A stretch of 54,452 nt of DNA from an uncultured Actinomycetes bacterium (GTDB taxonomy: Bacteria; Actinomycetota; UBA4738; HRBIN12): positions 1-54,452 of the forward strand of contig CAZZND010000001.1 in the NCBI GenBank assembly GCA_964655465.1, in the 5' to 3' direction. Every line of letters begins with the position of its first letter. The first letter of the stretch is position 1. Shown piece after piece: positions 15,966 to 54,186 of this stretch. The position numbers and the translations under genes are program-made. The notes under the pieces were generated by a model. That model was not told where the DNA came from, did not search any database, and saw only the letters and a list, made by a program, of their open reading frames with translations.

Positions 15966-15987
15966 CGACATGAAAGGAGAGTTGCCC

Positions 15988-17735: not shown

Positions 17736-18881
17736 GTGCGTGATGACGAGGCGCTCAGGTTCGCCATCGACGAACTGGCCCGTCTGATCGAGATCCCTTC
17801 GGTTTCCGATCGCGAGCACGAAGCGATGAAGCACCTGGCGCTTCGGTGCCGGCAACTCGATCTGCCGGTCGAAGAGCAGCCGGTGGCGGGAGCGGGTCCG
17901 AACCTGCTCGTCGGATGGGACCCGTCGCCGACGCTCCTGTTGACGGCCCATATCGACACGATCGTCCCCACGTGGCAGACCGATCACCGAGCGACCGTTG
18001 ACGGATCCGTCGTCCACGGTCTCGGTGCGCAGGATGACAAAGGTTGCGCTGTCGCCATCTTGCTGGCTCTGCTCATGGCTCGCGATGCGGGGATGCCGGT
18101 CGAGCGCTTGCCGGTCGCTCTGGGGTTCTGCGTCGACGAGGAGGTCGGAGGGAAAGGCTCCCGAGCCATGGCGGACTCCATGCGTCCACCGTTCGTCGTC
18201 GCTTCGGAGGGAACGGAGCTCGACGTTGCCGTAACGGAGACAGGTTTCGTCGAGGCCTGGGTCCGGATCGAGGGGCGTTCGATGCACGGATCGCTGATCG
18301 AGGAGGCGGACAACCCGCTGCTGCGCGCTGCCGGTCTCATACAGGATCTCGTCCGGGCCCCCTTCACCCAGATCGAGCACCCCATCGCGGGCAGGAACAT
18401 GGTTGCCATCCTGCACCTGCTCGCCGAACAGCGTTCGAACGCAACACCCGATGAGGCCCTGATGCTTATCGCGGCCCGCGTCTTCGGACAGCCGGACCTC
18501 GGCGACGTGGCAGAGGAGCTGACGCGGATCTGCGCCGGGCACCGAGCGAGGTTCGAGGAGATCGATCGTGGCGGTTGGTGGGAGACGCAGTGGGACGCGC
18601 CGCTCGTCCGAGCGCTCGGCAGTGCATCCGAGCGAGCGATCGGCCGAACCCCGCGGCCCACCAGGATGCCGGCGTGGACCGATGCCCATAGCTTCCATGA
18701 CCGGAGCGGCTCGCAGGTGGTGGTCTACGGGCCGGGTCACCTGCGGACTGCTCACCGACCCGACGAGCACATCGATGCGGCGGAGATCGTGCGTGCGGCC
18801 CGCGTGATGGCCCAGGTGATCGGCGACGTCCATCAACTCGAGGACGCAGTGCCGGCGACGGAGAAAGGGGAAGCGCCATGA
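17736..18881 (+). CDS. M20-family amidohydrolase/peptidase (ArgE/DapE-like), paralog 2
   Basis: 381-aa ORF with a GTG start after the GAGGGAG RBS. It has LLLTAHIDTIVP, GAQDDKGC and AWTDAHSF, and is collinear with 10466-11578. Confidence 0.85.
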   Translation: MRDDEALRFAIDELARLIEIPSVSDREHEAMKHLALRCRQLDLPVEEQPVAGAGPNLLVGWDPSPTLLLTAHIDTIVPTWQTDHRATVDGSVVHGLGAQDDKGCAVAILLALLMARDAGMPVERLPVALGFCVDEEVGGKGSRAMADSMRPPFVVASEGTELDVAVTETGFVEAWVRIEGRSMHGSLIEEADNPLLRAAGLIQDLVRAPFTQIEHPIAGRNMVAILHLLAEQRSNATPDEALMLIAARVFGQPDLGDVAEELTRICAGHRARFEEIDRGGWWETQWDAPLVRALGSASERAIGRTPRPTRMPAWTDAHSFHDRSGSQVVVYGPGHLRTAHRPDEHIDAAEIVRAARVMAQVIGDVHQLEDAVPATEKGEAP

Positions 18882-19966
18882 AGCGTGGGAGGACCATCGC
18901 AGCGAGCCTGGCGACGGCGGTGCTGCTTGCCGCATGCGGCACCGGGGGAAGCACCACGGCGGAGGGGACGGAGACGAGCGCAGCGCCGCTCTCGGGCGAC
19001 CTCACCTTCTTCGCCTACGAGGACGCCTTCGAACCTGCGTTGTTGGATCCATTCGAGTCCGCCAACCCAGGGGTGAACGTCAGGACGGCGGCTTTCTCGA
19101 GCGCCGACGAGACGATCACGAAGCTGCAGAGCGGATTCGTGGCGGACGTGGTGAACGTCTGTGTTGAGGACACTGGCCGGATGGTGGCCTCGGGCCTGTT
19201 GCAGCCGATCGACACCGCGCGGCTCGCGAACTGGGAGCGGATGTTCCCGGCGTTCCGCGAGCTGGATGGAGTCGCCGTGGACGGGCAGGTGTACCTCGTG
19301 CCGATGGTGGGCGGGACGAGCGGGATCATGTACGACGAGGACGCCATACCGGAAGGGGTCAGCTCGTACGCGACCGCCTTCTCGGAGGAGTACGCGGGGG
19401 AGATCGGGCTGGATGACGATCCTCTGACGGGGATCGCGGTAGCCGCGATGGCCCTTGGCATCGAGGAGCCTCTCAACCTGACCGAGGACCAGCTCGCCCA
19501 AGTCAAGGGATTCCTGATCGAGAAGAAACCGCTGATCCGGTCGCTCTTCAAGGGGGACTCCGACGTGTCGCAGCTGTTCGGATCGGGTGAGATCAGCATC
19601 GCGATCCCGGGGTACAAGGGCACGACAGAGACCCTTCAGGACGACGGGCTGCCGGCGGCGTTCTCGCTCGCGTCCGAGGGACAGCTGACGTGGACCTGCG
19701 GCTACTCGATCGGCGCGAACGCCGAGAACGTCGATGCCGCCTACGCCCTGATCAACCACTACAGCCAGCCTCAGACCCAGGCCTGGCAAGCGGAGAACTT
19801 CTTCTACCTCGTGTCCAACCAAGACACGCTGGATGCGGTGGCACCCGAGATCGTCGAAACGGCGGGGCTCGAGGACCCGGGGAACTTCGAGAACGCCGTG
19901 CCGTACGCCGTCCCTTCGAACTACGACGAGTGGGTCGCGGTCTGGCGCGAGTTCAAGTCCGCGTAG
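18878..19966 (+). CDS. ABC transporter substrate-binding lipoprotein, PotD/PotF family, paralog 3
   Basis: 362-aa ORF whose ATG overlaps the upstream stop (ATGA). The lipobox is LLAACGT. The fold pattern matches the other SBPs. Confidence 0.9.
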   Translation: MKRGRTIAASLATAVLLAACGTGGSTTAEGTETSAAPLSGDLTFFAYEDAFEPALLDPFESANPGVNVRTAAFSSADETITKLQSGFVADVVNVCVEDTGRMVASGLLQPIDTARLANWERMFPAFRELDGVAVDGQVYLVPMVGGTSGIMYDEDAIPEGVSSYATAFSEEYAGEIGLDDDPLTGIAVAAMALGIEEPLNLTEDQLAQVKGFLIEKKPLIRSLFKGDSDVSQLFGSGEISIAIPGYKGTTETLQDDGLPAAFSLASEGQLTWTCGYSIGANAENVDAAYALINHYSQPQTQAWQAENFFYLVSNQDTLDAVAPEIVETAGLEDPGNFENAVPYAVPSNYDEWVAVWREFKSA

Positions 19967-20012: not shown

Positions 20013-21551
20013 TCACGATCCGCGCTCCCGGTCGATCAGGTGGGCCGGCTCCGGTGGAGGATGGGAGGCGATCTCGCGCACGGCCTCTGCAACCCGTTCG
20101 CAGGACCAGCGGAACAGATCGGTCGGCATGTCCAGCGGTGGCTGCAGCCGGTACACCCACTTGCCCCACTGCGTGAGCCCGAGGACGCCGCGCTGTACGG
20201 CGACACGGTGAACGGCCCTGTGGAAGGCCGGAGCGGGCCGGATCGAGCTCTTGTCCTGCACGAACTCGATGCCGATGTACGCGCCCGCTGCCCGGACGTC
20301 GCCCACCTGCTCGACCTGGTGCACGAGCGGTCCGAGCACCTCGAGCGCGGTCCGTTCCATCAGCATGACGTTCTCGAGCGCGCCGGTGTCGAGGATCGCG
20401 TCGATGTTGGCGAGGGCGCCCGCCGCAGATGGTGGCGTCCACGCGAAGGTGCCGCCCAGAGCGAGGGTGCTGCTCGCCATGATCTCCTCGGTGCCCAAGA
20501 TCGCGCCGATCGGCTGTCCACCGCCGCTGAACCCCTTGCCGAGGAGCAGCAGATCCGGGCGGATGCCGTAGCGCTCGGCCGCGAACATCGTGCCGCAGCG
20601 TCCCAGGCCGGTCTGGACCTCGTCGAGGATCAGCTTCCAGCCCCATCGCGTACACATCGCCTGCAACCGCTCCCAGAACGCGGGCGAGGGCACGATGATC
20701 CCGCCCTCACCCAGCACGGGCTCTATCAGTACGCCGGCGATCTCGCCTGGTTCGACCTGGTGAACCAGCACCCAGTCCTCGAGATAGTCGAGCGTGGCCG
20801 TGTCATCGAAGGGTCCGGCCCCGCGATGGAACGGGGCCCGGTAGGCGTTCGGGTAGGGGATGAAGACGAGGCCCGGCGCGAACTGCGCGTGCTGGGTAGT
20901 CACCTCGGAGAGATCGGTCGACGATCCCGCCGTGAGGTAGGTGCTCTCGCCGTGGTACTGACCGAGGAACCCGAGGATCATCGGGCGGCCCGTGGCCTCT
21001 CGAGCAAGCTTGATGCCGCCTTCGACCGCCAGGGTGCCCGACAAGGAGTAGGCGACCCGCGAAAGGCCCTCCGGCGCGATCTCGAGGATGCGCTCGGCGA
21101 GCTCGATGACCGGCTCCGAGATCGTGTAGGCGGTGTTCTGCATGCCGAGCGAGCGTTCGCACTCGATCACAGCCTCGGTCACTCTCGACGTCCCTCGAAG
21201 AGGGGTCGACCCCCAGGCCGAGACATGGTCGGCGAACGTGTTGCCGTCCACGTCCTCCAGCAGCCACCCTCGTTGCCTGGCAAGGACGAGGGGTACGTCC
21301 GCGTGGTCGGCACGGCCGATGTACCGGCGGTCGAATCGGTCCAAGAGCTTGGAACTCAACGGACCGGGCAACGACGTGCGGACGCGAGGAGATTCGCCCT
21401 CCAGGGATGTGCGTAGTCGGTCCGTCTCCGCGTCGATGGCCAGACTGTAGGTGTCCCGTTCCGTCCTGTCGTCTCGGATCGCGGCGTGAGGAGGCGAAGA
21501 TCCATCGAACTTCGGACCGTGGCGGTCGTCCTCTGCCTTGACTCGACCCAC
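20013..21551 (-). CDS. Class-III (omega) aminotransferase, paralog 2
   Basis: It has LPGPLSSKL, DEVQTGLGRCGTMFAAE and the PLP-lysine block LGKGFSGG. I place the start at the in-frame GTG 21551-21549. This GTG sits in the same TAGAC(A/T)-GTCGACC-start arrangement as kbl, and it avoids overlap with the divergent permease gene. The N-terminus is still uncertain. Confidence 0.8.
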   Translation of the reverse strand: MGRVKAEDDRHGPKFDGSSPPHAAIRDDRTERDTYSLAIDAETDRLRTSLEGESPRVRTSLPGPLSSKLLDRFDRRYIGRADHADVPLVLARQRGWLLEDVDGNTFADHVSAWGSTPLRGTSRVTEAVIECERSLGMQNTAYTISEPVIELAERILEIAPEGLSRVAYSLSGTLAVEGGIKLAREATGRPMILGFLGQYHGESTYLTAGSSTDLSEVTTQHAQFAPGLVFIPYPNAYRAPFHRGAGPFDDTATLDYLEDWVLVHQVEPGEIAGVLIEPVLGEGGIIVPSPAFWERLQAMCTRWGWKLILDEVQTGLGRCGTMFAAERYGIRPDLLLLGKGFSGGGQPIGAILGTEEIMASSTLALGGTFAWTPPSAAGALANIDAILDTGALENVMLMERTALEVLGPLVHQVEQVGDVRAAGAYIGIEFVQDKSSIRPAPAFHRAVHRVAVQRGVLGLTQWGKWVYRLQPPLDMPTDLFRWSCERVAEAVREIASHPPPEPAHLIDRERGS

Positions 21552-21568
21552 GGTCGACTGTCTACTAT
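21552..21568. promoter_or_regulatory. Phased GTNNAC operator (site 3) in a divergent promoter region
   Basis: GTCGAC-T-GTCTAC at 21553-21565. The plus-strand -10-like box is TACTAT (21563-21568). The minus-strand -10-like box is TAGACA (21564-21559), 7 nt before GTG 21551. Confidence 0.6.
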
Positions 21569-21636
21569 CTTCCGCCCGTCCCCAGCGCCGCTGCCGACCT
21601 GCCGGCGGCTCGGTACGGAGGGTGCCCGGAGGTGAC

Positions 21637-22518
21637 GTGGCCGACCAGATCGCGACGGTGAAGACTGAGGAGGAGCGCCGCTCTGAGCCGATCGGTGGGG
21701 CTGGTCGCCCCGCCCGCGTTGCCAGGATCGCCTTCCTGGCCGGGGTCATGCTGCTGCTGTACGGGCCACTAGCGGTCCTCGCCCTCTTCTCTTTCAACGA
21801 TCAGATCGTGATCGCGTTGCCGTTCCACGCATTCACGCTCGAGTGGTATCGAGAGGCGCTCGACAACAAGCTGGTTCGGGAGTCGCTGAAGAACTCGCTG
21901 ATCCTGGCCTCCATCGTGACGCCGGTCGCGGTGGTGCTCGGGACGCTGGCCGCGTTCGCCCTCACGCGGTTCGCCTACCGGCTCCGCGGCGGCGTGGCGA
22001 TCCTCGTGGGAGGTCCGCTCGTGGTGCCGTGGCTGCTGATCGCCGTCGGGCTGTTGCTGTTCTTCAGCCGGCTCAAGATAGCGCTAGGGTTCACCACGAT
22101 CGGCCTGTCGCACGTGGTGGTCGCGTTCCCGCTCGTTGCGGCCATCGTCTCGGCCCGGCTCCTGCGGTTCGATCCGCGCCAGGAAGAGGCGGCGCGCGAT
22201 CTGGGCGCCACCAACGGCGAGGTCCTGAGGTTCGTGATCCTCCCGCACCTCGCGCCCGCGATCGCCGCCGCGGCGGTCCTCGCCTTCAGCTACTCGTTCA
22301 ACAATTTCGTGATCAGCTTCTTCACCGGAGGCTTCGAGCTCACCTTCCCGACGTGGGTGTTCTCGACCCTCCGCCATGCGCAGAACGTGCCGATTGTCAA
22401 CGCGATCTCGACGCTCGTCTCGGCGGTCCAACTGGCGGTCATCGTGCTCGCCTGGGTGCTGTGGAACCGTCGCGCGCGCAGGATCGCCAGCGCCGACCCG
22501 ATGGCGATGCTGTGGTAG
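21637..22518 (+). CDS. ABC transporter permease (PotC-like), system 1
   Basis: In-frame GTG at 21637 follows GGAGG. The product is a multi-TM protein with the EAA-type loop EEAARDLGATNGEVLRFVILPHLAPAI. Confidence 0.85.
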   Translation: MADQIATVKTEEERRSEPIGGAGRPARVARIAFLAGVMLLLYGPLAVLALFSFNDQIVIALPFHAFTLEWYREALDNKLVRESLKNSLILASIVTPVAVVLGTLAAFALTRFAYRLRGGVAILVGGPLVVPWLLIAVGLLLFFSRLKIALGFTTIGLSHVVVAFPLVAAIVSARLLRFDPRQEEAARDLGATNGEVLRFVILPHLAPAIAAAAVLAFSYSFNNFVISFFTGGFELTFPTWVFSTLRHAQNVPIVNAISTLVSAVQLAVIVLAWVLWNRRARRIASADPMAMLW

Positions 22519-23393
22519 CCAGCGCAGCTGCTGCGCCTCACCGCCGTAGCCTCGCCGGGCCGTTCTACGCGGCGCTGCCCACGGCGGTGCTCCTGCTGCT
22601 GTTCGTGGGGCCGATGCTCATCCTGCTGTACTTCTCGTTCCAGGAGTCGCTGTTCGGCCAGGCGAAGGGCTGGACGTTCGACAACTACACGTCGATCCTG
22701 ACCGATCGCACCTACGGGAAGGTCATGCTCACCACCGTCACGATCTGCACGATCTCCATGCTGGTGATGCTCGCGATCGCGATCCCCATGGCCTACCTAC
22801 TCGCCTTCCGCCTGCGCCCGAAGATGGAGTTGCTGTTCCTCCTCCTGCTCGTGCTCTCCGAAGAGCTCAACCCGTTGATCCGGGTGTACGCCTGGCGCAC
22901 CATCTTGGGTCGGCAAGGAGTCGTGAACTTCCTTCTCATGAAGCTCGGGCTCATCGAACACCCGATCGACGTGCTGTTGTTCTCGAGCCTGGCGGTTGTC
23001 ATCGTCATGTCGACCACTTACGTGCCGTACACGACCATCCCGATCTACGCGGCGTTGAAGGCGGTGGACCCCTCACTTCTCGAGGCGGCGGACGATCTGG
23101 GGGCCTCGTTCGCGACGAGGTTCCGCAAGATCCTCCTTCCGCTCGCGGCGCCGGGGATCTTCGTGTCGATCATCTTGGTCTACATCCCCTTGTACTCGGA
23201 GTTCGCCGCGCCGTCGCTGGTCGGCGGGACCAGCGGCTACATGATCGGCAACGCCATCCAGGAGCAGATCCTGGAGGCGGGCAACCGCGGTGTCGGCGCG
23301 GCGATGAGCTTCATGTTGCTGGTGCTGTCGGGGGCGATCGCCTTCGCCGGGTACCGGCTCGGCAGGATCAAGCGGCTGCAAGCGACGGCATAG
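22512..23393 (+). CDS. ABC transporter permease (PotB-like), system 1
   Basis: In-frame GTG at 22512 overlaps the upstream stop. The product is a multi-TM protein with the EAA loop LEAADDLGASFATRFRKILLPLAAPGI. Confidence 0.85.
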   Translation: MVASAAAAPHRRSLAGPFYAALPTAVLLLLFVGPMLILLYFSFQESLFGQAKGWTFDNYTSILTDRTYGKVMLTTVTICTISMLVMLAIAIPMAYLLAFRLRPKMELLFLLLLVLSEELNPLIRVYAWRTILGRQGVVNFLLMKLGLIEHPIDVLLFSSLAVVIVMSTTYVPYTTIPIYAALKAVDPSLLEAADDLGASFATRFRKILLPLAAPGIFVSIILVYIPLYSEFAAPSLVGGTSGYMIGNAIQEQILEAGNRGVGAAMSFMLLVLSGAIAFAGYRLGRIKRLQATA

Positions 23394-23402
23394 GAGGACG
23401 AC

Positions 23403-24542
23403 GTGTCTGAGGCATCGGAGTCGCGGGGTGGCGGGCCCGCCATGCGGCTGGAGGGGGTGGTGAAGCGGTTCGGCGATGTCGTGGCGGTCGATCACATCGA
23501 CTTCGAGATCCGGCCGAGCGAGTTCTTCTCTTTGCTCGGTCCGAGCGGCTGCGGCAAGACCACGACCCTGCGCATGCTCGCAGGGTTCGAGCGCCCCACC
23601 GAGGGACGCATCCTGATCGACGAGGTCGACTCCGCCGATCTGCCGCCGCACCGCCGCGATACGAACATGGTGTTCCAGAGCTACGCGCTGTTCCCGCACA
23701 TGACCGTGGCGCAGAACGTGGCGTTCGGGCCGCAGCGCAAGCGGTTGGGGCGTGCGGAGGTCGAGAACGCCGTGCGTGAGGCTCTCGCCACGGTACGGAT
23801 GAGGGACTACGCCGGCCGCTACCCGCGCGAGCTCTCCGGCGGGCAGCAGCAGCGGATCGCGCTCGCGCGCGCGCTCGACGAGCCGCTCGGGGCGCTCGAC
23901 CTGAAGCTCCGCGAGGAGATGCAGTTCGAGTTGAAGCGCATCCAGCGCGACGTGGGGATCAGCTTCGTCTATGTCACGCACGACCAAGGTGAGGCCATCA
24001 CGATGTCGGATCGGATCGCCGTGATGAACGGCGGTCGTGTCGAGCACCTCGGCACACCCGAAGAGGTCTACCTGCGGCCCGCCACGCGGTTCGTGGCCGG
24101 CTTCATCGGGCAGGCGAGCTTCCTGCCGTGCCGCGTCGAGACCGCCGGCCGCGATAGCGCTCGTGTCGTGCTCCCCGGTGGGGTCCCCGCGACGGCCGGG
24201 GGTGCCGCGGCAGGGTGCGTCGCCGGCACCGAGGCCGTGCTGATGCTGCGCCCAGAGCACGTGCGGTTGAGCGCCGCCGATCCCGGCCGGCCCGGCTCGT
24301 TCCCGGCCCGTGTCGTCGAGCAGGTCTTCCAGGGCGCGGTGGTGCGCTACGGCCTCGAGGCCGCCGAAGGCGCGCGCCTCACGGCGATCACGCCGCTCGC
24401 CGACCGCCTCGACCCCGACGCAGGGGGCAACGCGTGGGTGAGCTGGTCCTCCGAGTGGGCGTACGTGTTGCCGGCCGAAGACGGGGGCGAGACGCCAGCA
24501 GAGCAGACGGCGAGGCTTCCCAGCGGCGACGTCGTGTCGTAG
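23403..24542 (+). CDS. ABC transporter ATP-binding protein (PotA-like), system 1, with a 9-aa deletion at Walker B
   Basis: It has Walker A [9 protein letters not shown], Q-loop [11 protein letters not shown], signature LSGGQQQR and H-loop YVTHDQ. The segment between the signature and DEP reads [14 protein letters not shown], whereas the paralog reads [23 protein letters not shown]. Confidence 0.85.
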   Translation: [379 protein letters not shown]

Positions 24543-24554: not shown

Positions 24555-25808
24555 TTGTCATCCACCCACGCTGATCTTGTGATCGCGGCGTTCGCGATCG
24601 ACGAGATCGTCGAGGGGACCCAGACAGGGCGGGACGGCACGACGCTGATCGTGTCGCCACCGCAGCTCGCGGTCGGAGCCGGGGAACCGGCACTGGCGGA
24701 GGCCACGGTCGAGGTCGTCCGTCCCGGCGATCGCGTCCGCATCTCGAACGTCCTCGATGCCGTGCTGCCCGACGTGCGCGCGGACGACCCCGTGTGCACG
24801 TTCCCGGGTGCCCTCGGCACCCTCAGCCCGGCGGGGAACGGCCGGTTGCATCGCCTGCGCGGGGTCGCGGTCCTGTCGGTCTGCGACTGGCAGGCCGCCG
24901 GCCACGTCGAGCCCGACGACTTCCCGGATTGCGTCGTGGACATGGACGGGCCGGGCGCGTCCCTCAGCCCCTGGGGCTCGACGTGCAACGTCGTCGTGCG
25001 GGCGGTGCCGGCGACCGGCGCGCCGGTCGCCGACGTAGATCGCGCGATCCGGCGCGCGACGCTTCGCGTCGCGCGCACCCTCGCCGAGACAACCATGGAG
25101 GCTGCGCCCGACGACGTGACCACCTTCGGACCGCTGCGCGCCGCGCCGGACGACCTGCCTCGCGTCGCGGCCATCCTGCAGGTCGCCTCCGAGGGTCCGC
25201 TGACCGACACGTTCTTCTACGGGGCGCCGATGGGCGGCCTGGTTCCCACCGTGATCGATCCCCGCGAACCGCTCGGTGGCGCGTTGATCAACGGGGCGTA
25301 CGACTGGCCGTCGGTCCGCAACCAGACGGCGACGTACCAGGACCTCGCGCTCGTCCACGAGCTGATCGCCGCCGACGGCGAGCGTCTGCGCTTCGCCGGG
25401 CTGATCGTGGCGCTCGGCTACCTCAGCACGGCGTTCGAGAAGCAGCGTTCGGCCATGCTGTCGGCGCGTCTCGCCCGTTCTCTCGGAGCCGACGCTGCGA
25501 TCTGCACGACGTTCTCGTCGGGCAACTCCCACACCGACACGATGCTCACCGTGCGCGCGCTCGAGCGTATGGACATCGCCGCGGTGCCGATCGTGGCCGA
25601 GACCAACGGCGGGCTCACCGACCACGTCCCCGAGGCCGTGAGCATCGTGAGCGTGGGGAACGAGGACGAGCTCGTCGAGGCGTGGACGCCCGACCGCGTG
25701 ATCGGGAGCGACGGGCCCGCGCGCGCCGGCGAGCCCGTCCCGACGTGGGCGTACCTCGGCGCGACGGTGCAGACCGGTGACGGATGGCTCCAGGCGGTGC
25801 CGGCATGA
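24555..25808 (+). CDS. Glycine/sarcosine/betaine reductase component B, GrdE/GrdG/GrdI-family subunit (no mid-protein Cys, so GrdI-like)
   Basis: 417-aa ORF. From memory it is collinear with GrdE-family proteins (VEVVRPGDRVRISNVLDAV...FPGALG...GRLHRLRGVAV; CVVDMDGPGASLSPWGSTCNVVV; SSGNSHTD...PIVAETNG). Its stop overlaps the start of the GrdB-like gene (ATGA). The start is uncertain: TTG 24555 or GTG 24579. Confidence 0.72.
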   Translation: MSSTHADLVIAAFAIDEIVEGTQTGRDGTTLIVSPPQLAVGAGEPALAEATVEVVRPGDRVRISNVLDAVLPDVRADDPVCTFPGALGTLSPAGNGRLHRLRGVAVLSVCDWQAAGHVEPDDFPDCVVDMDGPGASLSPWGSTCNVVVRAVPATGAPVADVDRAIRRATLRVARTLAETTMEAAPDDVTTFGPLRAAPDDLPRVAAILQVASEGPLTDTFFYGAPMGGLVPTVIDPREPLGGALINGAYDWPSVRNQTATYQDLALVHELIAADGERLRFAGLIVALGYLSTAFEKQRSAMLSARLARSLGADAAICTTFSSGNSHTDTMLTVRALERMDIAAVPIVAETNGGLTDHVPEAVSIVSVGNEDELVEAWTPDRVIGSDGPARAGEPVPTWAYLGATVQTGDGWLQAVPA

Positions 25809-27094
25809 CGGTCGTGCACTACCTCAACCAGTTCTTCGCCGGCCTCGGCGGCGAGGAGGTGGCCGGCCACGAACCGATCCGCCTCGACGGACCGCAGGGC
25901 CCGGGACGAGGTCTCGCGGCCGAGGGTCTCGACGTCGACGTCACCCTCGCCTGTGGCGACGATCATTTCGGTGAGCACGAGGACGAAGCGCTGCGGACCC
26001 TCCTCGGCTGGATCGACGAGCTCGATCCGGACGTGCTCGTCTGCGGGCCGGCGTTCGGCTCGGGTCGCTACGGCTACGCGTGCGGCGTGCTGGCGCGCGA
26101 GGCCGCGCGGCGCGGCGTGCCGGTCGTGACCGCGATGACGCCCGACTCGCCCGGGGTGCTCGCTGCCGAGGGCGCGGCGTACGTCGTGCCGACCACGTCC
26201 AATGTCGCCGGCATGCGGGCGGTGCTGCCCGTCGTGGCAGGGCTCGCGAAGAGGCTCGCCGCCGCCGAGGCCGTGGGGGGGCCCGAGGAGGAGGGCTACC
26301 TGCCGCGGGGGCTCCGCGCGAACGCGCGGGCCGATCGCCCGGGCGCCGCGCGCGCGATCGACCTGGCGCTCGCCCGCCTGGCCGGCGAAACGATGACCGA
26401 GGTCGAGCCCTCCGGCGATCGGGTACCGCCGCCGCCCGCGCTGACGGACCTCTCGGATGCCACGATCGCGCTCGTCACGGAGGCCGGCTGTGTGCCACAG
26501 GGCAATCCCGATCGCTTGCCCACGCGTCGCGCCAACGTGTGGTTGCGTTATCCGATCGATGGGGTCGCGTCGTTCACCGCCGACCGGTATCAGTCGGTCC
26601 ACGCTGGCTTCGACACGACCGCCGCGAACGAAGATCCCAACCGCCTGGTGCCGCTCGACGCCGCGCGCGCGTTAGAAGCGGCCGGCAAGTTCGGTCGCTT
26701 GCACGACGCGTTCTACACGACGTCGGGCGTCGACACGCCGGTGGCCACGGCCGCCAAGTTCGGGCGCGAGATCGCCGAGGAATGCCGCGAGGCCGGGGTG
26801 CAGGCCGTGATCCTGACAGGCACCTGAGGGACAGGAACGCGTTGCGGGGCAACGCTGTCGAAGGAGTTGGAGCGGATGGGGATCCCGACCGTGTTCATCA
26901 CGGCGCTCCCGACCATCGCGCAGATGGTGGGCGCCAACCGGATCATGCGCGGTGTCTCGATCACGCACCCCACGGGCGACCCGTCGCTCGCGGCTGGGGA
27001 CGAGCTCGCACTTCGCACCGCGATGCTCGACCGCGCCCTGGACATGCTGCAGACCGACGTCGGGCCGCTGACGGTGTGGGAGGTCGAACGCTGA
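25805..27094 (+). CDS. grdB: Selenoprotein B of a Grd-type reductase (GrdB/GrdF/GrdH family); TGA 26825-26827 decoded as selenocysteine
   Basis: The N-terminus MTVVHYLNQFFAGLGGEE is the hallmark GrdB start. ORF 25784..26827 ends ...AVILTGT at a TGA. The same frame continues GTGTRCGATLSKELERMGIPTVFITALPTIAQMVGANRIMRGVSITHPTGDP..., which includes the 75-aa ORF 26867..27094. This reproduces the U-x2-C-x2-C Sec motif of GrdB. The product is 429 aa with Sec at residue 341. The symbol is family-level only. Confidence 0.88.
26838..26857 (+). other. Candidate bacterial SECIS hairpin for the GrdB-like UGA
   Basis: The 7-bp stem GCGTTGC/GCAACGC (26839-26845 and 26849-26855) has a G-rich apex (GGG). 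It starts about 11 nt after the UGA, and C26838:G26857 extends it across a bulged T. Confidence 0.55.
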
Positions 27095-27095
27095 C

Positions 27096-28409
27096 GTGAC
27101 CACCCCCGCGATCCTCGGCGCCAGTCTGACCCTGCAGCACGTGCCCGACCTCGTGCGGCACGGGTCCAAACCGGCGCGCGAGCCCGACCTGCTGCCCCGG
27201 TTGCTCACGTCGCTCAGGACCTACGACGACGCCGTCGCGTACCCGCCGCATCAGGTGTTCATCGGCAACCTCTCGCCGCGCGCGCTCCGTGACCTGCCTC
27301 GGCCGTGGTGGCGCGACGCGCCTCCCGCGCCCGAGGACGGGCCGAGCGGGCAGATCGTCGATGAGGCCACGTTCTACGAGTGGCTCGCCGCGCTCGACCG
27401 GTTCGAGCTGGTGCGCATGAAACAGGAGCCTCGTCCCGGAGATCTGCCACTGTACGCAGGCGGAGAAGTCATCGGCGCGTTCGCGCCTGGCCACGACCAG
27501 GACGAGTCGCTCACCGCCTCGGTGCTGCTCGAGAACCTGTCGTGCCTGGTGAGCGCGACGTCCGCGACCCGCCACCTGCTGACCGCCTCCGGTGTCGATC
27601 CCGCGTCGATCACCCATGTGATCGCCTGCGGCGAAGAGGCGATCGGCGACCGCTACCAGCGTGGCGGCGGCAACCTCGCGAAGGCGGTCGCCGAGGCCTG
27701 CGACCTGACCGAGGCCAGCGGCGCCGACGTGAAGGCGTTCTGTGCGGGCCCGATCCACGCGCTGATCGTCGCCGGGGCGCTCGTCGCCTCCGGCGTGCAC
27801 GACCGGGTCGCCGTCGTGGCCGGCGGATCGCTCGCCAAGCTCGGCATGAAGTTCCTCGGGGCGCTCGAGACCGGTGGGCCGATCATCGACGATACCCTCG
27901 CGGGGATGGCCGTCTTGGTGGGCCGCGCCGAGGACGATCCGTCTGCGCCGGTCATGCGCATGGACGCGATCGGACGCCACCGCACCGGCTCGGTCTCGCA
28001 GCAGGCCTTGCTGGAGGACATCGTCGGTGGACCGCTGGATGCGATGGGTATCGGCATCGCCGACATCGATGTCTACGCGACGGAGCTGCACAACCCCGAG
28101 GTCACCGAGCCCGCCGGCGGCGGCGACGTGCCCGACCGCAACTACCGGATGCTCGCGGGGCTCGGGGTCGTTCGAGGCGAGCTCGAGCGCGAGGCGATGG
28201 CCACGTTCGTGCACGACCACGGCTTGCCCGGCTTCTCGCCCACGCAGGGGCATATCGCCTCGGGCGTGCCCTGGCTCCCGCACGCGCTCGCGCGGTTCCG
28301 CGCGCGCGACCTCGACCGAACGATGTTGCTCGCCAAAGGCAGCCTGTTCCTCGGGCGGATGACGCGGCTGTGGGACGGCGCCTCGATCACCATGGAGGCC
28401 CAACGATGA
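27096..28409 (+). CDS. grdC: Grd reductase component C, beta subunit (GrdC-like, thiolase/KAS-III-like fold)
   Basis: 437-aa ORF with a GTG 2 nt after the GrdB stop. These blocks match my recollection of GrdC: ASLTLQHVPDLVRHG, AYPPHQVFIGNLSP..PWW, ACGEEAIGDRYQRGGGNLAKAV, DVKAFCAGPIHALI, EPAGGGDVPDRNYRML, GLPGFSPTQGHIASGVPW and KGSLFLGRMT. Confidence 0.75.
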   Translation: MTTPAILGASLTLQHVPDLVRHGSKPAREPDLLPRLLTSLRTYDDAVAYPPHQVFIGNLSPRALRDLPRPWWRDAPPAPEDGPSGQIVDEATFYEWLAALDRFELVRMKQEPRPGDLPLYAGGEVIGAFAPGHDQDESLTASVLLENLSCLVSATSATRHLLTASGVDPASITHVIACGEEAIGDRYQRGGGNLAKAVAEACDLTEASGADVKAFCAGPIHALIVAGALVASGVHDRVAVVAGGSLAKLGMKFLGALETGGPIIDDTLAGMAVLVGRAEDDPSAPVMRMDAIGRHRTGSVSQQALLEDIVGGPLDAMGIGIADIDVYATELHNPEVTEPAGGGDVPDRNYRMLAGLGVVRGELEREAMATFVHDHGLPGFSPTQGHIASGVPWLPHALARFRARDLDRTMLLAKGSLFLGRMTRLWDGASITMEAQR

Positions 28410-28762
28410 ACGTCAGCGCCGAGACCTACGACGTCCTCGCGACGAGCGGCCACGTCTTCCTCGACGTGTGGGGTCCGCAGTGCCAGCCGTGCATCGCGAT
28501 GATGCCGGCGATCGACGATCTGGCGCGCCGTTACGACGGCCGGGTCAAGGTCTTGAAGCTCGAAGGGCCCGAGCACCGCGAGCTGTGCCGCTCGCTCCGC
28601 GTGGCCGGTCTGCCCACCTACATCACGATGCGCGACGGCGGCGAGGTCGAACGCCTGACCGGCAACGGGCTCACGTTCACCGACCTGGAGGCCGCGATCG
28701 AGCGGCTGCTGGACGGCGCCCCCGTGGTGGGGCTCCCCGTTCCCGAACACCTGAGGGGGTGA
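28406..28762 (+). CDS. Thioredoxin-family protein with an atypical CQPC active site
   Basis: ATG at 28406 overlaps the GrdC stop (ATGA). It reads FLDVWGPQCQPCIAMMPAIDDLARRYDGRVKVLKLE...GLPTYITMRDGGEV, a Trx fold with CQPC in place of CGPC. Length 118 aa. Confidence 0.85.
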   Translation: MNVSAETYDVLATSGHVFLDVWGPQCQPCIAMMPAIDDLARRYDGRVKVLKLEGPEHRELCRSLRVAGLPTYITMRDGGEVERLTGNGLTFTDLEAAIERLLDGAPVVGLPVPEHLRG

Positions 28763-28773
28763 ATACGAGATCC

Positions 28774-29232
28774 ATGGAACTTCGAGGCAAGAAGGTGATC
28801 GCCCTCGGCGAGCGCGACAGCGTGCCCGGCGAGGCGCTCGCCGAGGTCGCCCGCTCGGCGGGCGCCGAGGTCATCGAGGTGCGCACGGAGTGCTTCGTCT
28901 GAACAGCTTCCGGTGCGATGGATCCTGAGAACCAGGGACTGATCAAGGGGATCGTCGAGGAACACGGCTCCGCCGACCTGGTCGTGCTGCTGGGCGCAGC
29001 CGACGAGGACGCGGTGGAGGTCGCGGCCCAGACGGTCCGTGAGGGCGATCCCTCGTACGTGGGTCCACTCGCCGGGGTCCAGTTGGGACTCCCCGTGCTG
29101 CACGTCTTCGAGGACCAAGTGAAGGAGCAGGCCGACCCGGTCGTCTACGAGGAGCAGGTCGGTTTCTTCGTGCTGTCCTTCGACACCGGCGCGATCATCC
29201 AGGCGATGCGGCGGGCCCGTGGCGAAGCCTGA
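28774..29232 (+). CDS. grdA: Glycine/sarcosine/betaine reductase complex selenoprotein A (GrdA); TGA 28900-28902 decoded as selenocysteine
   Basis: MELRGKKVIALGERDSVPGEALAEVARSAGAEVIEVRTECFV-[TGA]-TASGAMDPENQ...VVLLGAADEDAVEVAAQTVREGDPSYVGPLAGVQLGLPVLHVFE. The CFV-U-TAxGAMD motif and GPLAGVQLGLPV are diagnostic of GrdA. The ORF track splits the gene into the end of 28468..28902 and 28918..29232. The product is 152 aa with Sec at residue 43. Confidence 0.92.
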
Positions 29233-29258: not shown

Positions 29259-30455
29259 TCAGGATCGAAGACCGAGCTCACGGCCGACGCGGCCGAAGAT
29301 GGCGATGGCCTCGTCGAGATCGTCGTCAGTATGGTCCGCGGTCACGATGGTGCGCACGCGCGCCCGACCCTTCGCCACCGTCGGGAACACGATCGCCGGG
29401 GCGAACACCCCGGCGTCGAACAGCGCGGCGGCGAACGCCTGGGCCGTCGACTCGTCGCTGGTGATCACCGGGGTGATCGGGGTCTCCGACCCGCCCGTGT
29501 CGAACCCGAGCCCGGCCAGCCCCTCCTTGGATCGTGCGGTGTTCGTCCACAGGCGCTCGAGCCGCTCGGGCTCGTCGCGCATGACGCCGAGCGCCTCGAG
29601 GCATGCCGCCGCCACCGCGGGCGGCGTCGATGTCGAGAACAGGTACGGACGCCCGCGTTGTCGCAACCACTCGATGAGGTGGGCCGGGCCCGCGATGAAC
29701 CCGCCGAGCACGCCGATCGCCTTCGACAGCGTCCCCACCTGGATGTCGACGCGGCCGTGCAGGCCGAAGTGGTCGACCGTGCCTGCGCCGCCCGCGCCGA
29801 GGACCCCGCTCGCGTGTGCATCGTCGACCATCATGATCGCGCCCCGCCGCTCGGCGACCTCGACCAGGTCCGGCAGGGGCGCGATGTCGCCGTCCATAGA
29901 GAACACGCCGTCGGTGATCAGCAGCTGCCGGCGGGCCTCGCCGGCGGTCTCGGCCAACAGACGCTCGGCATGGGCGGCGTCGGCGTGCTCGTAGACCTCG
30001 ATCCTGGCCTTCGACAACCGGGCGCCATCGATGATCGACGCGTGGTTGAGCCGGTCGGACACGATCACGTCCTCGGGCCCCAAGATCGCGGCGACGGTGC
30101 CGGCGTTCGCGGCGAACCCCGACTGGAACATCAGCGCCGCTTCCGCGTGTTTGAAGGCGGCGAACCGTTCCTCCAACTCGACGTGCAGGTCCATCGTCCC
30201 CGCGATCGTTCGGACCGCCCCCGAGCCGGCGCCCAGGTCGCGGGCAGCCCGTGCCGCCGCCTCGTTGAGGCGCGGATGGTTCGCGAGACCCAGGTAGTTG
30301 TTCGACGCGAGGTTGATCACCTCGCGACCGTCGAAGGTCGCGCGGGCTCCGGTCGGGCCGGACAAGGTGCGCGACCGCAGGAGCAGCCCGTCGGCCTCGA
30401 GGCTGGCGACCTCGTCGCGGAGGAACGCGAGCCGGTCCACGGATCCAGCTGACAT
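29259..30455 (-). CDS. kbl: Glycine C-acetyltransferase (2-amino-3-ketobutyrate CoA ligase), Kbl/BioF family
   Basis: ATG at 30455 (MSAGSVDRLAF...) gives 398 aa. Blocks are NLASNNYLGLANHP, VRTIAGTMDLHVELE, VSDRLNHASIIDG, DDAHASGVLG and GTLSKA (PLP Lys). The LNHASIIDG block and the length favour Kbl over BioF. Confidence 0.78.
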   Translation of the reverse strand: MSAGSVDRLAFLRDEVASLEADGLLLRSRTLSGPTGARATFDGREVINLASNNYLGLANHPRLNEAAARAARDLGAGSGAVRTIAGTMDLHVELEERFAAFKHAEAALMFQSGFAANAGTVAAILGPEDVIVSDRLNHASIIDGARLSKARIEVYEHADAAHAERLLAETAGEARRQLLITDGVFSMDGDIAPLPDLVEVAERRGAIMMVDDAHASGVLGAGGAGTVDHFGLHGRVDIQVGTLSKAIGVLGGFIAGPAHLIEWLRQRGRPYLFSTSTPPAVAAACLEALGVMRDEPERLERLWTNTARSKEGLAGLGFDTGGSETPITPVITSDESTAQAFAAALFDAGVFAPAIVFPTVAKGRARVRTIVTADHTDDDLDEAIAIFGRVGRELGLRS

Positions 30456-31306: not shown

Positions 31307-32431
31307 ATGCGTCGTCGATCTCTCGGTGCGGTCGCCTTGGCAGCGACCTTCGCGATCTTCTCGGCGGCGTGTTCGTCCGACACGACGCCGTCCGAACCCA
31401 CGAGCTCGGCGGGCGGGACCGCGACCGCAGCCCCCTCGGGCCCCCTGCGGTTGTTCTCCTACAGCGACGGGTTCGATCCGACCTACATGGAGACGTTCTT
31501 CGAGGAGTACCCCGACATCGAGCTCGAGACCGCCGCGTTCGGGTCGAACGACGAAGCCATCGCCAAGCTCCTCGCGGGCTTCGAGGCCGACGTCGTGAAC
31601 AGCTGTGTCGACGAGGCAACCCTTGAGATGGTGACCAGGGGTCTGTACCAGCCGCTGGATCTGTCGCGTCTCGAGCATTGGGAAGAGCTCTTCCCGTCGA
31701 TGAAGGAGCTTCCCGGCGTCGTGGTGGATGGGCAGGCATACATCGTGCCGGTCGATGCCGGCACCGCAGGGATCATGTACGACGCCGACGTGGTCACCGA
31801 GACGCCGGATTCATGGCTCGACCTGTTCGACCCGCAGTGGGCGGACCGCGCCTCGATTGAAGACCTGTCCGTGACCGCGATCGACATCGGCGCCCTCGCG
31901 ACGGGCATCACCGACCCGATCGGCATGGATGAGGCGCAGCTGGAGCAGGTCAAGCAGTTCCTCATCGACAACCGTGGTCAGTTCCGCACGTTCTGGAAGG
32001 GCGAAGCGGACATCAAGGCACAGTTCAAGAACGGCGAGGTGGTGATCGCGAGCGGGTATCCCGGCACCGCGAAGTCTCTCCGGGATCAGGGCGTGAACGT
32101 CCAGTTCGCGCAGGCGTCGGAGGGTCAGCCGCTGTGGACGTGCGGCTACGGGATCAGCCCCGAGGCCGAGAACCTCGACGCCGCGTACGCGCTGCTGAAC
32201 TGGTACACGAGCCTTCCCCCGCAGATCTACGCGGCCGAGAACTTCAGCTATGTCACGTCGAACAGCAAGATCGTCGACGAGGTGTCCGAGGACGTGCTCA
32301 ACGCCACGGGGATCATGCGCTTCGTCACCGGAGCTGACGGCGCCCCCGCCGACGTCAACCTGATCCCGGCGAGCCCGCCTGAAGACTCAGAGGCCTGGCG
32401 CGCGGCCTGGACCGAGGTCAAGGCGTCGTAG
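31307..32431 (+). CDS. ABC transporter substrate-binding lipoprotein, PotD/PotF family, paralog 4
   Basis: 374-aa ORF preceded by the RBS GGGGAGGG. The signal peptide ends IFSAACSS. It is collinear with SBP paralogs 1-3. Confidence 0.9.
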   Translation: MRRRSLGAVALAATFAIFSAACSSDTTPSEPTSSAGGTATAAPSGPLRLFSYSDGFDPTYMETFFEEYPDIELETAAFGSNDEAIAKLLAGFEADVVNSCVDEATLEMVTRGLYQPLDLSRLEHWEELFPSMKELPGVVVDGQAYIVPVDAGTAGIMYDADVVTETPDSWLDLFDPQWADRASIEDLSVTAIDIGALATGITDPIGMDEAQLEQVKQFLIDNRGQFRTFWKGEADIKAQFKNGEVVIASGYPGTAKSLRDQGVNVQFAQASEGQPLWTCGYGISPEAENLDAAYALLNWYTSLPPQIYAAENFSYVTSNSKIVDEVSEDVLNATGIMRFVTGADGAPADVNLIPASPPEDSEAWRAAWTEVKAS

Positions 32432-33330
32432 TGGCCATCGCCGCCGAGCGAGGCCTGCCGCCGCTCGCGGCTCCCGGCACCGACGCGCTGCGGCGGCGCC
32501 GTGCCGCCGGGCGGTGGGCCTGGCGCGCGTTCCTCGGCGTCGTCGGGCTCGTTCTGTTCGGGCCCCTGCTGATCCTCGTCGCGTTCGCGTTCAGCGATTC
32601 GAACATCCTCGCCTTCCCGTTCGAAGGTGTCACGACCCGCTGGTTCACGGCGGTGTTCGACGACGCGCTCCTGCGGAAGGCGCTCGTGAACTCCTTCGTG
32701 ATCGCCGCCATCGTCACGCCGGTCTGTCTGGTCTTGGGGACCCTCGCCGCGTTCGGGCTGACCCGCTTCCGCTTCCGTGGCCGAGGTGCGGTCGGCGGTC
32801 TGGTCGCCGCGCCGCTCGTGCTGCCCTGGCTCCTTATCGGGATCGCCGCGTTGATGGCGTACGCCAGGCTGGACATCGAACTGTCGCGTGGCACGGTCAT
32901 CGTCACGCAGATCGTGTGCACGTTCCCGCTGGTCACGGCCATCGTCGCGGCGCAGCTGTTCCGGTTCCAGCGAACCCAGGAAGAGGCCGCGATCGACCTC
33001 GGCTGCTCGCGGCTTCAGGTATTGCGCTACATCATCTTGCCGCACATCGGTCCTGCCCTCGCCGCGGCGGCGATCTTCGCGTTCACCTGGTCGTTCAACA
33101 ACTACGAGATCAGCCTGTTCACGATCGGATTCGACATGACCTTCCCGATCTGGGTGTATTCGTCGGTCCGCAACCCCGACCACACCGCCGTCGTCAACGC
33201 CGTCTCCACGCTGATCTCGGCGGCGCAGGTGGTGCTGATCGTGATCGCGGTGCAGCTTCTGCGGGCCAGAGGCGGCAGCGTGCACGCCATGGCGGGCAGC
33301 GAGATGGCGACGGCGGCGGCGAAGACCTGA
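32431..33330 (+). CDS. ABC transporter permease (PotC-like), system 2
   Basis: 299-aa ORF whose GTG overlaps the upstream TAG by 1 nt. The EAA loop is EEAAIDLGCSRLQVLRYIILPHIGPAL. It is collinear with 21637-22518. Confidence 0.85.
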   Translation: MAIAAERGLPPLAAPGTDALRRRRAAGRWAWRAFLGVVGLVLFGPLLILVAFAFSDSNILAFPFEGVTTRWFTAVFDDALLRKALVNSFVIAAIVTPVCLVLGTLAAFGLTRFRFRGRGAVGGLVAAPLVLPWLLIGIAALMAYARLDIELSRGTVIVTQIVCTFPLVTAIVAAQLFRFQRTQEEAAIDLGCSRLQVLRYIILPHIGPALAAAAIFAFTWSFNNYEISLFTIGFDMTFPIWVYSSVRNPDHTAVVNAVSTLISAAQVVLIVIAVQLLRARGGSVHAMAGSEMATAAAKT

Positions 33331-35365: not shown

Positions 35366-35369
35366 ACCG

Positions 35370-44990: not shown

Positions 44991-45112
44991 CGCTTCCTGG
45001 CAGCGGCCGACCGGCCGCCCGGATGGCCCTATCACCCGAATTCCTGGATCTCACCCAGAAGGTTCCCCTGAAGCGACGCGGCCGGCTCGCTGGGCCCCGG
45101 TCGAGGGCTACG

Positions 45113-54092: not shown

Positions 54093-54093
54093 G

Positions 54094-54186
54094 CGGAGGC
54101 GGACGGGAATCGAACCCGCCAGGGGGCTCGTCGCCCCCTCATCGGTTTTGAAGACCGAGGGGCCCACCAGGAACCCGGACGCCTCC
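54094..54186 (-). tRNA. selC: tRNA-Sec (anticodon UCA)
   Basis: The reverse complement reads GGAGGCGT-CC-GGGTTC-CTGGT-GGGCCC-C-TCGGT-CTTCAAA-ACCGA-TG-AGGGGGC-GACGA-GCCCCCT-G-GCGGG-TTCGATT-CCCGT-CCGCCTCC-G. Features are a 7-nt anticodon loop with UCA, a 6-bp D stem, a long variable arm (7-bp stem), a TTCGATT T-loop and discriminator G. It is 93 nt long and no CCA is encoded. A TAGCCT -10-like box (54199-54194) lies 7 nt upstream of the 5' end. Confidence 0.93.

Follow-up and report, generated by a model that had tools for sequence, protein, structure and literature searches.

A predicted GrdB-family selenoprotein with an in-frame UGA codon in a Grd-type operon of an uncultured actinomycete

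The gene at 25805-27094 on the plus strand of a 54,452-nt contig from an uncultured Actinomycetes bacterium (the window, meaning the whole stretch of DNA that was analysed) very probably encodes the selenocysteine (Sec) subunit of a Grd-type reductase complex, with its in-frame UGA recoded through a SECIS hairpin and a tRNA-Sec and with chemistry of the kind proposed below. Judged from its sequence, the product is predicted to be the substrate-specific 'protein B' selenosubunit of that complex. It is a selenoprotein of an ordinary, well-known kind and a fresh member of the GrdB family, from an uncharacterised branch of soil Actinomycetota, and the predicted recoding of the TGA at 26825-26827 adds nothing new on Sec recoding itself. 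The comparisons described here directly establish that the protein belongs to the family, the presence of the recoding signals, the make-up of the operon and the sequence differences that run through the clade.

Reading frame and family membership

An earlier note on this DNA had proposed that ORF 25784..26827, which stops at TGA 26825-26827 after ...AVILTGT, continues in the same frame, absorbs the separate ORF 26867..27094 and ends at the TGA at 27092-27094. These coordinates agree with ours, and read-through past the first TGA gives GTGTRCGATLSKELERMGIPTVF... up to the terminal codon. The true start was placed at ATG 25805 (MTVVHYLNQFF), in an ATGA overlap with the TGA of the upstream gene, so that Sec is residue 341 of 429. 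Comparison with the family profiles, as the note had suggested, gave a full-length match of the read-through product to TIGR01918 (414.5 bits, cutoff 65.45; residues 3-426 aligned to profile positions 2-431 of 431) and 370.8 bits against Pfam GRDB (PF07355). The 88 residues that follow the TGA were also compared alone and are 47-51% identical to the C-termini of bona fide GrdB proteins (E 1e-20 to 1e-25), so the homology expected past the TGA is present.

An open extension of 88 codons is by itself within chance in DNA of 70% GC, since a second frame is likewise open; the significance of the extension, and of the hairpin behind the UGA, comes from homology, codon bias and comparative data. GC3 of the gene is 0.90 after the TGA and 0.89 before it, and the ratio of nonsynonymous to synonymous codons across 55 loci is 1.11 downstream and 1.06 upstream. 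Gene calls for this contig in a public collection are truncated (340 aa and 104 aa), and the 340-aa call ends where the note had expected standard annotation to cut the protein, just before Sec 341.

Searches of the PDB by sequence and by family profile gave no match. In the structure that AlphaFold predicts for the Cys-form homologue P0002 (mean pLDDT 81), the Sec position falls in a redox loop of strand-loop-helix geometry, and a Foldseek search of this model against the PDB returned only generic alpha/beta-domain matches (TM ~0.2), with no informative structural relative. A database look-up of contigs encoding P0001 found none on record.

The UGA codon and its decoding

At the column of codon 341 (26825-26827, plus strand), TGA is kept in 79 of the 80 aligned loci, which range from Actinomycetota to Firmicutes, and the remaining locus (L001) has TGC, a Cys codon. 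Cys likewise occupies the Sec position in five full-length database homologues (P0002/3/7/20/60), and alignment A2 shows no variation at the active-site column C341. A check of the orthologues for a genuine stop or a Cys-less truncation at this place therefore returned only TGA and, in the exceptions, Cys.

A tRNA-Sec with anticodon UCA was identified at 54093-54186 on the minus strand by ARAGORN and matches Rfam RF01852 over its full length (76.2 bits, gathering score 47); it is predicted to decode both Sec-UGA codons of the contig, in the grdB-like gene and in grdA. The genes selA, selB and selD were sought among the ORFs of the whole 54-kb contig, including the 266 nt past the tRNA-Sec, and none was found; a tRNA-Sec sought within 10 kb of the operon in 31 related loci was likewise absent.

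The SECIS hairpin

A bacterial SECIS element at 26828-26864 (plus strand) is supported by covariation, RNAalifold and alignment to SECIS_4. Its hairpin, GCGUUGC-GGG-GCAACGC, has a stem at 26839-26845 and 26849-26855 and a GGG loop at 26846-26848, and begins exactly 11 nt past the UGA, in keeping with the earlier proposal of a SECIS-position hairpin about 11 nt downstream. When 26825-26890 was folded as a single sequence, as the note had advised, the hairpin formed at the place described, while its energy was no better than that of shuffled sequences (z = 0.12). Single-sequence folding is uninformative here because the DNA is GC-rich, and comparative analysis was used instead. Across 70 distinct sequences the stem is paired in 95.9% of cells, and the hairpin is kept across phyla with compensatory changes; pair 18-28 occurs as UA in 42 sequences and CG in 28, never unpaired, and pair 15-31 as GC in 49 and UA in 13. 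None of 500 shuffles reached the observed pairing values, and the RNAalifold consensus recovered the same helix. The stem contains the rare codons CGT (14%) and GCA (5.7%), and the hairpin is absent from the Cys-form locus L001.

Rfam SECIS_4 (RF01990) aligned to the element over its full length (1-38/38) with 20.7 bits, under the gathering score of 38, whereas classical loci reach 52-65 bits. Both forms lie directly past the UGA and share a CGYUGC-GGN-GCARCG stem-loop; the copy in the window is a GC-rich variant, which scores below threshold because its wobble positions are GC-shifted and its flanking codons differ. As a consequence, curated Rfam annotation misses the whole Actinomycetota clade. 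With the full-length TIGR01918 match, the TGA-or-Cys column, the covarying hairpin and the tRNA-Sec, the central claim of the earlier note, a GrdB-family selenoprotein with its catalytic Sec at the in-frame TGA, is well supported.

Operon composition and neighbourhood

The gene lies in a plus-strand operon of the order grdE-like, grdB-like, grdC-like, trx and grdA, whose members overlap or nearly abut. The adjacent partner of protein B, a GrdE/GrdG/GrdI-family protein (24555-25808, start codon uncertain; Pfam Gly_reductase PF09338, 247.9 bits), has a stop that overlaps the start of the grdB-like gene. It reads NGAYDWPSVRN where classical proteins have SGNCVSACDKN, a difference found throughout the clade, and as both processing cysteines are absent it is probably no pyruvoyl proprotein. 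Downstream follow a GrdC-like subunit (component C beta; 27096-28409; NF040746 reduct_C_beta, 499 bits, cutoff 450; Pfam DUF5940) and a thioredoxin with a WGPQCQPC active site (28406-28762; PF00085, 48.6 bits), which overlaps the grdC stop in an ATGA and is presumed to be the reductant of GrdA. The last gene (28774-29232) encodes GrdA, selenoprotein A, of 152 aa, with a second Sec-UGA at 28900-28902 (ECFV-U-TASGAMD). Its read-through product matches PF04723 GRDA over 1-147/147 with 183 bits and carries the CxxU motif, and its Sec-TGA stands at the same position in 65 of 65 loci. When the 60 nt past the GrdA UGA were folded jointly for 23 loci, no common structure was predicted, and Rfam yielded no SECIS match in this segment.

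Immediately upstream and co-directional, 12 nt from the grdE-like gene, is a PotABC-type ABC importer (21538-24542; BPD_transp_1, ABC_tran/TOBE_2) made up of permeases at 21538-22518 and ~22518-23393 and a PotA-like ATPase at 23403-24542; it probably brings in the substrate of the reductase. The window encodes four periplasmic binding proteins of the PotD/PotF type, one of them at 18878-19966 on the same strand (SBP_bac_8, 76 bits). Operons of the clade often have a PotD-type importer, an amine oxidase or an aminotransferase beside them; the relatives repeatedly show a flavin amine oxidase, and the neighbourhood is one of amine catabolism. A Kbl-family (glycine C-acetyltransferase-like) gene adjoins the operon on the opposite strand, an adjacency seen only in this window.

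GrdD was sought by tblastn over the 54-kb contig and within 10 kb in ~57 clade loci and was not found, whereas it is adjacent in classical loci, and since none lies within 10 kb, no local gene accounts for the final step of the textbook mechanism, which yields acetyl phosphate. No TrxB was found within 10 kb of the operon, and no glycine riboswitch, which classical loci possess.

Relationship to known reductases

The clade of the window protein comprises ~57 species of uncultured Actinomycetota, and literature searches on glycine or betaine reductase in Gaiellales or Actinomycetota yielded no relevant paper. Alignment to the models of GrdB, GrdF and GrdH, proposed in the earlier note, upheld family membership, while the cutoffs of all three equivalogs were missed; by these scores the protein belongs to the GrdB family and is an equivalog of none of the three. 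TIGR01917 (glycine GrdB) gave 380.2 bits against a cutoff of 602.2, which the classical loci L071 and L064 pass (654 and 625), the GrdF model NF040794 gave 411.4 against 800, and the GrdH model NF040795 gave 375.3 against 775. The published GrdB motif, AHGGxD[QTAP]x8RV[IL]PxD...TxGNxTxV (PMC9751293), is replaced by VHAGFDT...RLVPLD...TSGVDTPV, with GPAFGSGRYG in place of GPxF[NF]AGRYG, and the GrdF motif IHGGYDR...TTGTGT is absent.

The note's reading of the Sec region as a U-x2-C-x2-C redox motif was incorrect. A U-x-x-C-x-x-C motif has been reported for GrdB/F/H (Wagner 1999, as quoted in PMC6778437), and the window protein has U341-G-T-G344-T-R-C347, that is U-x-x-G-x-x-C, so that the canonical motif is incomplete. 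In each of the ~57 clade members, and in several relatives outside the Actinomycetota, the place of the first Cys is taken by Gly344.

Precedent for several of these features is offered by the fluoroacetate reductase FarB/FarE of Cloacibacillus porcorum (PMC10838667): the Cys motif behind its Sec is degenerate, its partner subunit has no processing cysteines, and its operon includes a dedicated transporter. It differs in that FarB lacks both cysteines, whereas the window protein retains Cys347; the FarE model gave 98 bits (cutoff 675), and neither a radical-SAM farC nor an MFS antiporter occurs in the window. D-proline reductase PrdB is homologous to the C-terminal half of the protein, Sec region included (TIGR04483, 78.6 bits, residues 214-415), at a score far under the cutoff of 300; unlike the window protein, PrdB is ~240 aa long, has no N-terminal domain, and works with PrdA and without GrdA or GrdC.

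Alternative readings

A GrdHI-like B component of a reductase for betaine, or for another quaternary or tertiary amine, in which Sec attacks directly and no carbonyl cofactor is used, is possible though rather doubtful. The absence of both processing cysteines from the partner is shared with GrdI and FarE (PMC10838667), GrdI also not being a self-cleaving proprotein; the selenosubunits are of similar size (~45 kDa); and the junction of the operon with an importer amid amine catabolism, with an amine oxidase recurrent in relatives, would suit such a substrate. The score against betaine_GrdH, less than half its cutoff, argues against this reading, as do a transporter of PotABCD type rather than a BCCT/OpuD or ProU-type betaine system and the lack of the first motif Cys in a protein to be compared with GrdH, for which U-x-x-C-x-x-C is reported (PMC6778437).

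An ordinary glycine reductase GrdB, converting glycine to acetyl phosphate as in Clostridia, is improbable. With the Peptoclostridium acidaminophilum / Clostridium sticklandii type the window protein shares fold family, length, a Sec that follows ...LT[GS]T at the homologous site, the location of the SECIS and the partners GrdA (a CxxU selenoprotein), GrdC and thioredoxin; its relatives are labelled 'glycine reductase' or 'betaine reductase' at JGI, and the Kbl-family gene next door would fit this reading. It is, however, ~45% identical to that type and comes from a high-GC Actinomycetota host, it falls below the TIGR01917 cutoff that classical loci pass, and it fails the published discriminating motifs of GrdB and GrdF (PMC9751293). 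Its partner lacks the pyruvoyl-forming Cys, while glycine and sarcosine enzymes need a Schiff base (PMC10838667, PMC9908766), GrdD, TrxB and the glycine riboswitch are missing nearby, and the Kbl adjacency is confined to this window.

That the TGA is a genuine stop, leaving a split or truncated GrdB, either a pseudogene or two polypeptides with a separate 75-aa ORF at 26867-27094, is very hard to sustain: TGA is indeed the main stop codon of the contig (20 of 28 genes, in line with the heavy use as a true stop that the note had described for the genome), ORF callers split the gene and the hairpin by itself shows no significant folding energy, but the codon is kept over several phyla and replaced only by Cys codons, the 13 codons between it and TTG 26867 (GTGTRCGAT...) are conserved like the rest, the synonymous/nonsynonymous pattern is equal on both sides, the RNA hairpin covaries and a tRNA-Sec lies on the contig.

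Proposed mechanism

For the preferred reading, a UGA-recoded Sec subunit of a Grd-type complex, we infer the chemistry, the substrate class and what the importer does by analogy with characterised systems, for which the Grd mechanism and the finding that GrdI and FarE are not proproteins have been published (PMC13188914, PMC10838667, PMC9908766). The UGA at 26825-26827 would be translated as Sec-341 by tRNA-Sec, presumably with SelB, under the direction of the SECIS 11 nt downstream. The importer would take up a substrate of the X-CH2-COO- type, and Sec-341 would attack its alpha-carbon, releasing X and forming a carboxymethyl-selenoether. Since the pyruvoyl-forming cysteines are missing from the GrdE-like partner, activation of the substrate would probably proceed without a Schiff base, as in betaine GrdHI and fluoroacetate FarBE. 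The carboxymethyl group would then pass to Sec-43 of GrdA and be processed by the GrdC-like protein, and oxidised GrdA would be re-reduced by the operon thioredoxin.

Substrates related to phosphonoacetate or 2-aminoethylphosphonate were set aside: apart from an alkaline-phosphatase-family gene and weak PhnR/PhnT-like scores, nothing points to them.

Significance

A wider and tentative reading, of somewhat less than even probability, is that the window contains one example of a widespread Grd-type reductase, found among soil Actinomycetota (Gaiellaceae, Thermoleophilia and relatives), whose substrate is not glycine, sarcosine or betaine and whose output is perhaps not acetyl phosphate. Its core would consist of a GrdE-like protein without the pyruvoyl Cys, a GrdB-like protein with U-x-x-G-x-x-C, a GrdC-like protein, thioredoxin and GrdA, in the absence of GrdD, TrxB and a glycine riboswitch. 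If true, bacteria that are not known for Stickland-type metabolism would add a new substrate specificity, and perhaps a new output as well, to selenium-dependent reductive C-X cleavage.

Gene callers that are naive to stop-codon recoding split or truncate both the grdB-like gene and grdA, and since the SECIS_4 threshold also misses the GC-rich form of the hairpin, the selenoproteins of a large soil clade are systematically under-called. Selenium-dependent Grd-type reductases are common in uncultured soil Actinomycetota, in a form that lacks a pyruvoyl site, has no GrdD next to it and shows a reduced Cys motif; identification of the substrate would widen the chemistry of a family so far associated with glycine, sarcosine, betaine, proline and fluoroacetate.

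Reading frame of the GrdB-like gene

The contig is a single sequence of 54,452 bp with 69.6% GC. ORF 25784..26827 ends in ...AVILTGT followed by TGA 26825-26827, and reading through this codon in frame gives GTGTRCGATLSKELERMGIPTVF... up to the TGA at 27092-27094, absorbing ORF 26867..27094; all coordinates in the earlier note proved correct when checked on the window. The functional start is ATG 25805 (MTVVHYLNQFF), in an ATGA overlap with the stop codon of the upstream gene, so that the TGA is codon 341 of 429. TGA terminates 20 of the 28 confident genes on the contig and is thus the majority stop codon, which makes the concern that selenocysteine (Sec) is hard to distinguish from a stop here a fair one. 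The open frame beyond the TGA is not significant as a lone argument, since long ORFs are common at 70% GC and a second frame is also open downstream.

The read-through product was compared with NCBIfam TIGR01918, the model for the glycine/betaine/sarcosine/D-proline family reductase selenoprotein B, and matched it end to end (414.5 bits, residues 3-426 to profile 2-431/431). Taken alone, the 88-residue segment that follows the TGA is collinear with bona fide GrdB C-termini (47-51% identity, E 1e-20 to 1e-25). GC by codon position was 0.66/0.52/0.90 downstream of the TGA versus 0.76/0.54/0.89 upstream, and the ratio of nonsynonymous to synonymous codon differences over 55 clade loci was 1.11 downstream versus 1.06 upstream. 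Public gene calls for the contig contain the split products, a 340-aa GrdB fragment and a 104-aa GrdA tail.

Comparative evidence and decoding

A search of 5.8 billion protein sequences returned 2,429 relatives. Among the best 120 of these, 115 end near residue 340 and the 5 full-length relatives carry Cys precisely at the TGA column (...LTGT-C-GTGTRCG...). Among GTDB species representatives, 80 loci could be parsed, drawn from Actinomycetota, Chloroflexota, Desulfobaccales, Spirochaetota, and Firmicutes, and TGA occupies the Sec column in 79 of them. The remaining locus, L001, has TGC in its grdB-like gene yet keeps TGA in grdA. In L007 and L032, the GrdB-like genes look frameshifted shortly before the Sec region (near 10900-11100), probably through errors in the assembly of long-read MAGs and not through biology.

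A tRNA-Sec with anticodon UCA was located at 54093-54186 on the minus strand by ARAGORN and Rfam (RF01852, 76.2 bits). No selA, selB, or selD was found in the 54,452 bp of the contig. A 602-aa class-V aminotransferase (45023-46831) shows weak similarity to SufS and selenocysteine-lyase (SclA).

SECIS element

The hairpin GCGUUGC-GGG-GCAACGC lies at 26839-26855, beginning 11 nt past the UGA. Its free energy is no better than that of dinucleotide shuffles (z = 0.12), so the hairpin proposed in the earlier note does not stand as a lone argument. Across 70 distinct sequences, 95.9% of the cells of the 7-bp stem are paired. Pair 18-28 is U-A in 42 sequences, C-G in 28, and unpaired in none; on its 5' side the pair falls on the synonymous wobble position of an Arg codon (CGU/CGC), and on its 3' side on the first base of the next Thr or Val/Ala codon. 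Pair 15-31 is G-C in 49 sequences and U-A in 13. None of 500 shuffles matched the observed pairing or covariation, slid registers collapsed, and RNAalifold recovered the identical helix, whose loop has an invariant GG. The stem is built from codons this genome seldom uses (Arg CGT 14%, Ala GCA 5.7%, Thr ACA 2.1%), and in the Cys-form locus L001 the helix is destroyed.

The whole of Rfam SECIS_4 (RF01990; 1-38/38) aligned to 26828-26864, directly after the UGA, but with 20.7 bits it stayed below the gathering score of 38; at the equivalent site in Caloramator, Thermobrachium, and Sporomusa it scored 52-65 bits. The hairpin therefore belongs to a known SECIS family as a GC-shifted member, and Actinomycetota loci are missed at the curated threshold. 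A match to the viral frameshift element weev_FSE inside grdC (27666-27692) reached 30.5 bits, short of its gathering score of 40, and is almost certainly chance.

Taken with the TIGR01918 match, the conserved TGA, and the tRNA-Sec, this covarying SECIS bears out the central claim of the earlier note, that the in-frame TGA of a GrdB-family gene encodes Sec.

Operon and neighborhood

The GrdB-like gene lies in a tightly packed, co-directional unit that runs from importer genes through GrdA. Ahead of it are two ABC permeases (21538-23393), a PotA-like ATPase (23403-24542), and the GrdE/G/I-family subunit (24555-25808). Behind it come a GrdC-like gene (27096-28409), which scores 499 bits with reduct_C_beta (cutoff 450), a thioredoxin whose site reads CQPC (28406-28762), and GrdA (28774-29232). 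Like the GrdB-like gene, the GrdA gene is a selenoprotein gene interrupted by an in-frame TGA, here at 28900-28902 (ECFV-U-TASGAMD); its read-through product spans Pfam GRDA 1-147/147, and the position is TGA in 65/65 related loci. Downstream of the GrdA UGA, no conserved structure and no Rfam SECIS match was detected.

Around the operon are a GntR/FCD regulator, a Kbl/BioF-family gene, two class-III aminotransferases, an agmatine-deiminase-like gene, and four PotD/PotF-like binding proteins, and the neighborhood looks like one of amine catabolism. The binding proteins, the aminotransferases, the agmatine-deiminase-like gene, and two PotABC-type transporter sets, which give this impression, occur at 14880-17085, 18878-19966, 20013-21305 (minus strand), 31307-36689, and 39850-40884. 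The Kbl/BioF-family PLP acyltransferase (29259-30452, minus strand; TIGR01825, 553 bits) converges on grdA, an adjacency seen only in the window among the loci examined. Unbiased neighbor clustering returned only the GrdE-like, GrdB, GrdC-like, thioredoxin, and GrdA genes as core; the variable neighbors are IclR or GntR regulators, PotD-type transporters, a flavin amine oxidase, an SMP-30-like gene, SDRs, and CtaG. In Gaiellaceae-type genomes (L035, L038, L040, L044, L046, L047, L050, L058, L059), the position of the grd cluster is conserved, with tRNA-Pro(UGG) upstream and tRNA-Gly(UCC) downstream.

Departures from characterized systems

The GrdB-like protein is the equivalog of no characterized B subunit, scoring 380 bits for GrdB (cutoff 602), 411 for GrdF (cutoff 800), and 375 for GrdH (cutoff 775), and it carries neither of the motifs that Nobu et al. 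2022 (PMC9751293) use to recognize GrdB and GrdF. Its clade, which comprises about 57 species of uncultured Actinomycetota along with some relatives elsewhere, is defined by four conserved departures. The motif after Sec is U-G-T-G-T-R-C in the clade and U-G-T-C-T-R-C in classical proteins; the U-x2-C-x2-C motif read here in the earlier note, a GrdB/F/H hallmark said to protect Sec (PMC6778437, PMC13188914), was thus wrong. In the GrdE-like partner and about 57 related loci, NGAYDWPSVRN replaces the SGNCVSACDKN of classical GrdE, so that neither of the cysteines that serve in autocatalytic cleavage and in forming the pyruvoyl group is present; the pyruvoyl site of C. difficile GrdE is residue 242 (PMC9908766). 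Betaine GrdI and fluoroacetate FarE, which are not proproteins, are described as having likewise lost these cysteines, and FarB is also without CxxC (PMC10838667). The glycine riboswitch found upstream in classical loci (L067 6216-6313, L071 6079-6166, L075 6298-6394) was not detected in the window or in Actinomycetota loci. GrdD, the acetyl-phosphate-forming subunit, and TrxB both adjoin grdC in classical Firmicutes loci, whereas for neither was a homologue found on the contig or, in any clade locus (L003-L060), within 10 kb of the operon.

Structure and proposed mechanism

No solved structure was found for any family member by sequence or by profile. In the AlphaFold model of P0002, a natural Cys-form homologue (76% identical, mean pLDDT 81), residue 341 is predicted in the loop that links strand 334-338 to helix 346-357, with Cys347 on the first helical turn, and this modeled placement is a typical redox-loop arrangement. 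Foldseek with this model returned only generic alpha/beta domains (TM ~0.2).

The family, recoding signals, and partners of the GrdB-like protein are established by these data, and the catalytic steps are modeled on the established Grd mechanism (PMC13188914, PMC9908766). Sec-341 would attack the alpha-carbon of an X-CH2-COO- substrate, probably supplied by the directly fused importer, and the carboxymethyl group would be transferred to Sec-43 of GrdA, where the GrdC-like protein would process it; GrdA would then be re-reduced by thioredoxin. The missing pyruvoyl site in the GrdE-like partner favors a reaction in which a good leaving group is displaced directly, as in GrdHI and FarBE, over one in which a primary or secondary amine is activated as a Schiff base.

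Significance

The GrdB-like gene is of a textbook type of selenoprotein gene, its protein already covered by TIGR01918 and its RNA by Rfam SECIS_4, and the close relative P0020 is already named family selenoprotein B by NCBI. The modest added interest is that it represents an uncharacterized, widespread Actinomycetota subfamily, and that standard ORF calling and Rfam thresholds miss the C-terminus of the GrdB-like protein and its SECIS.
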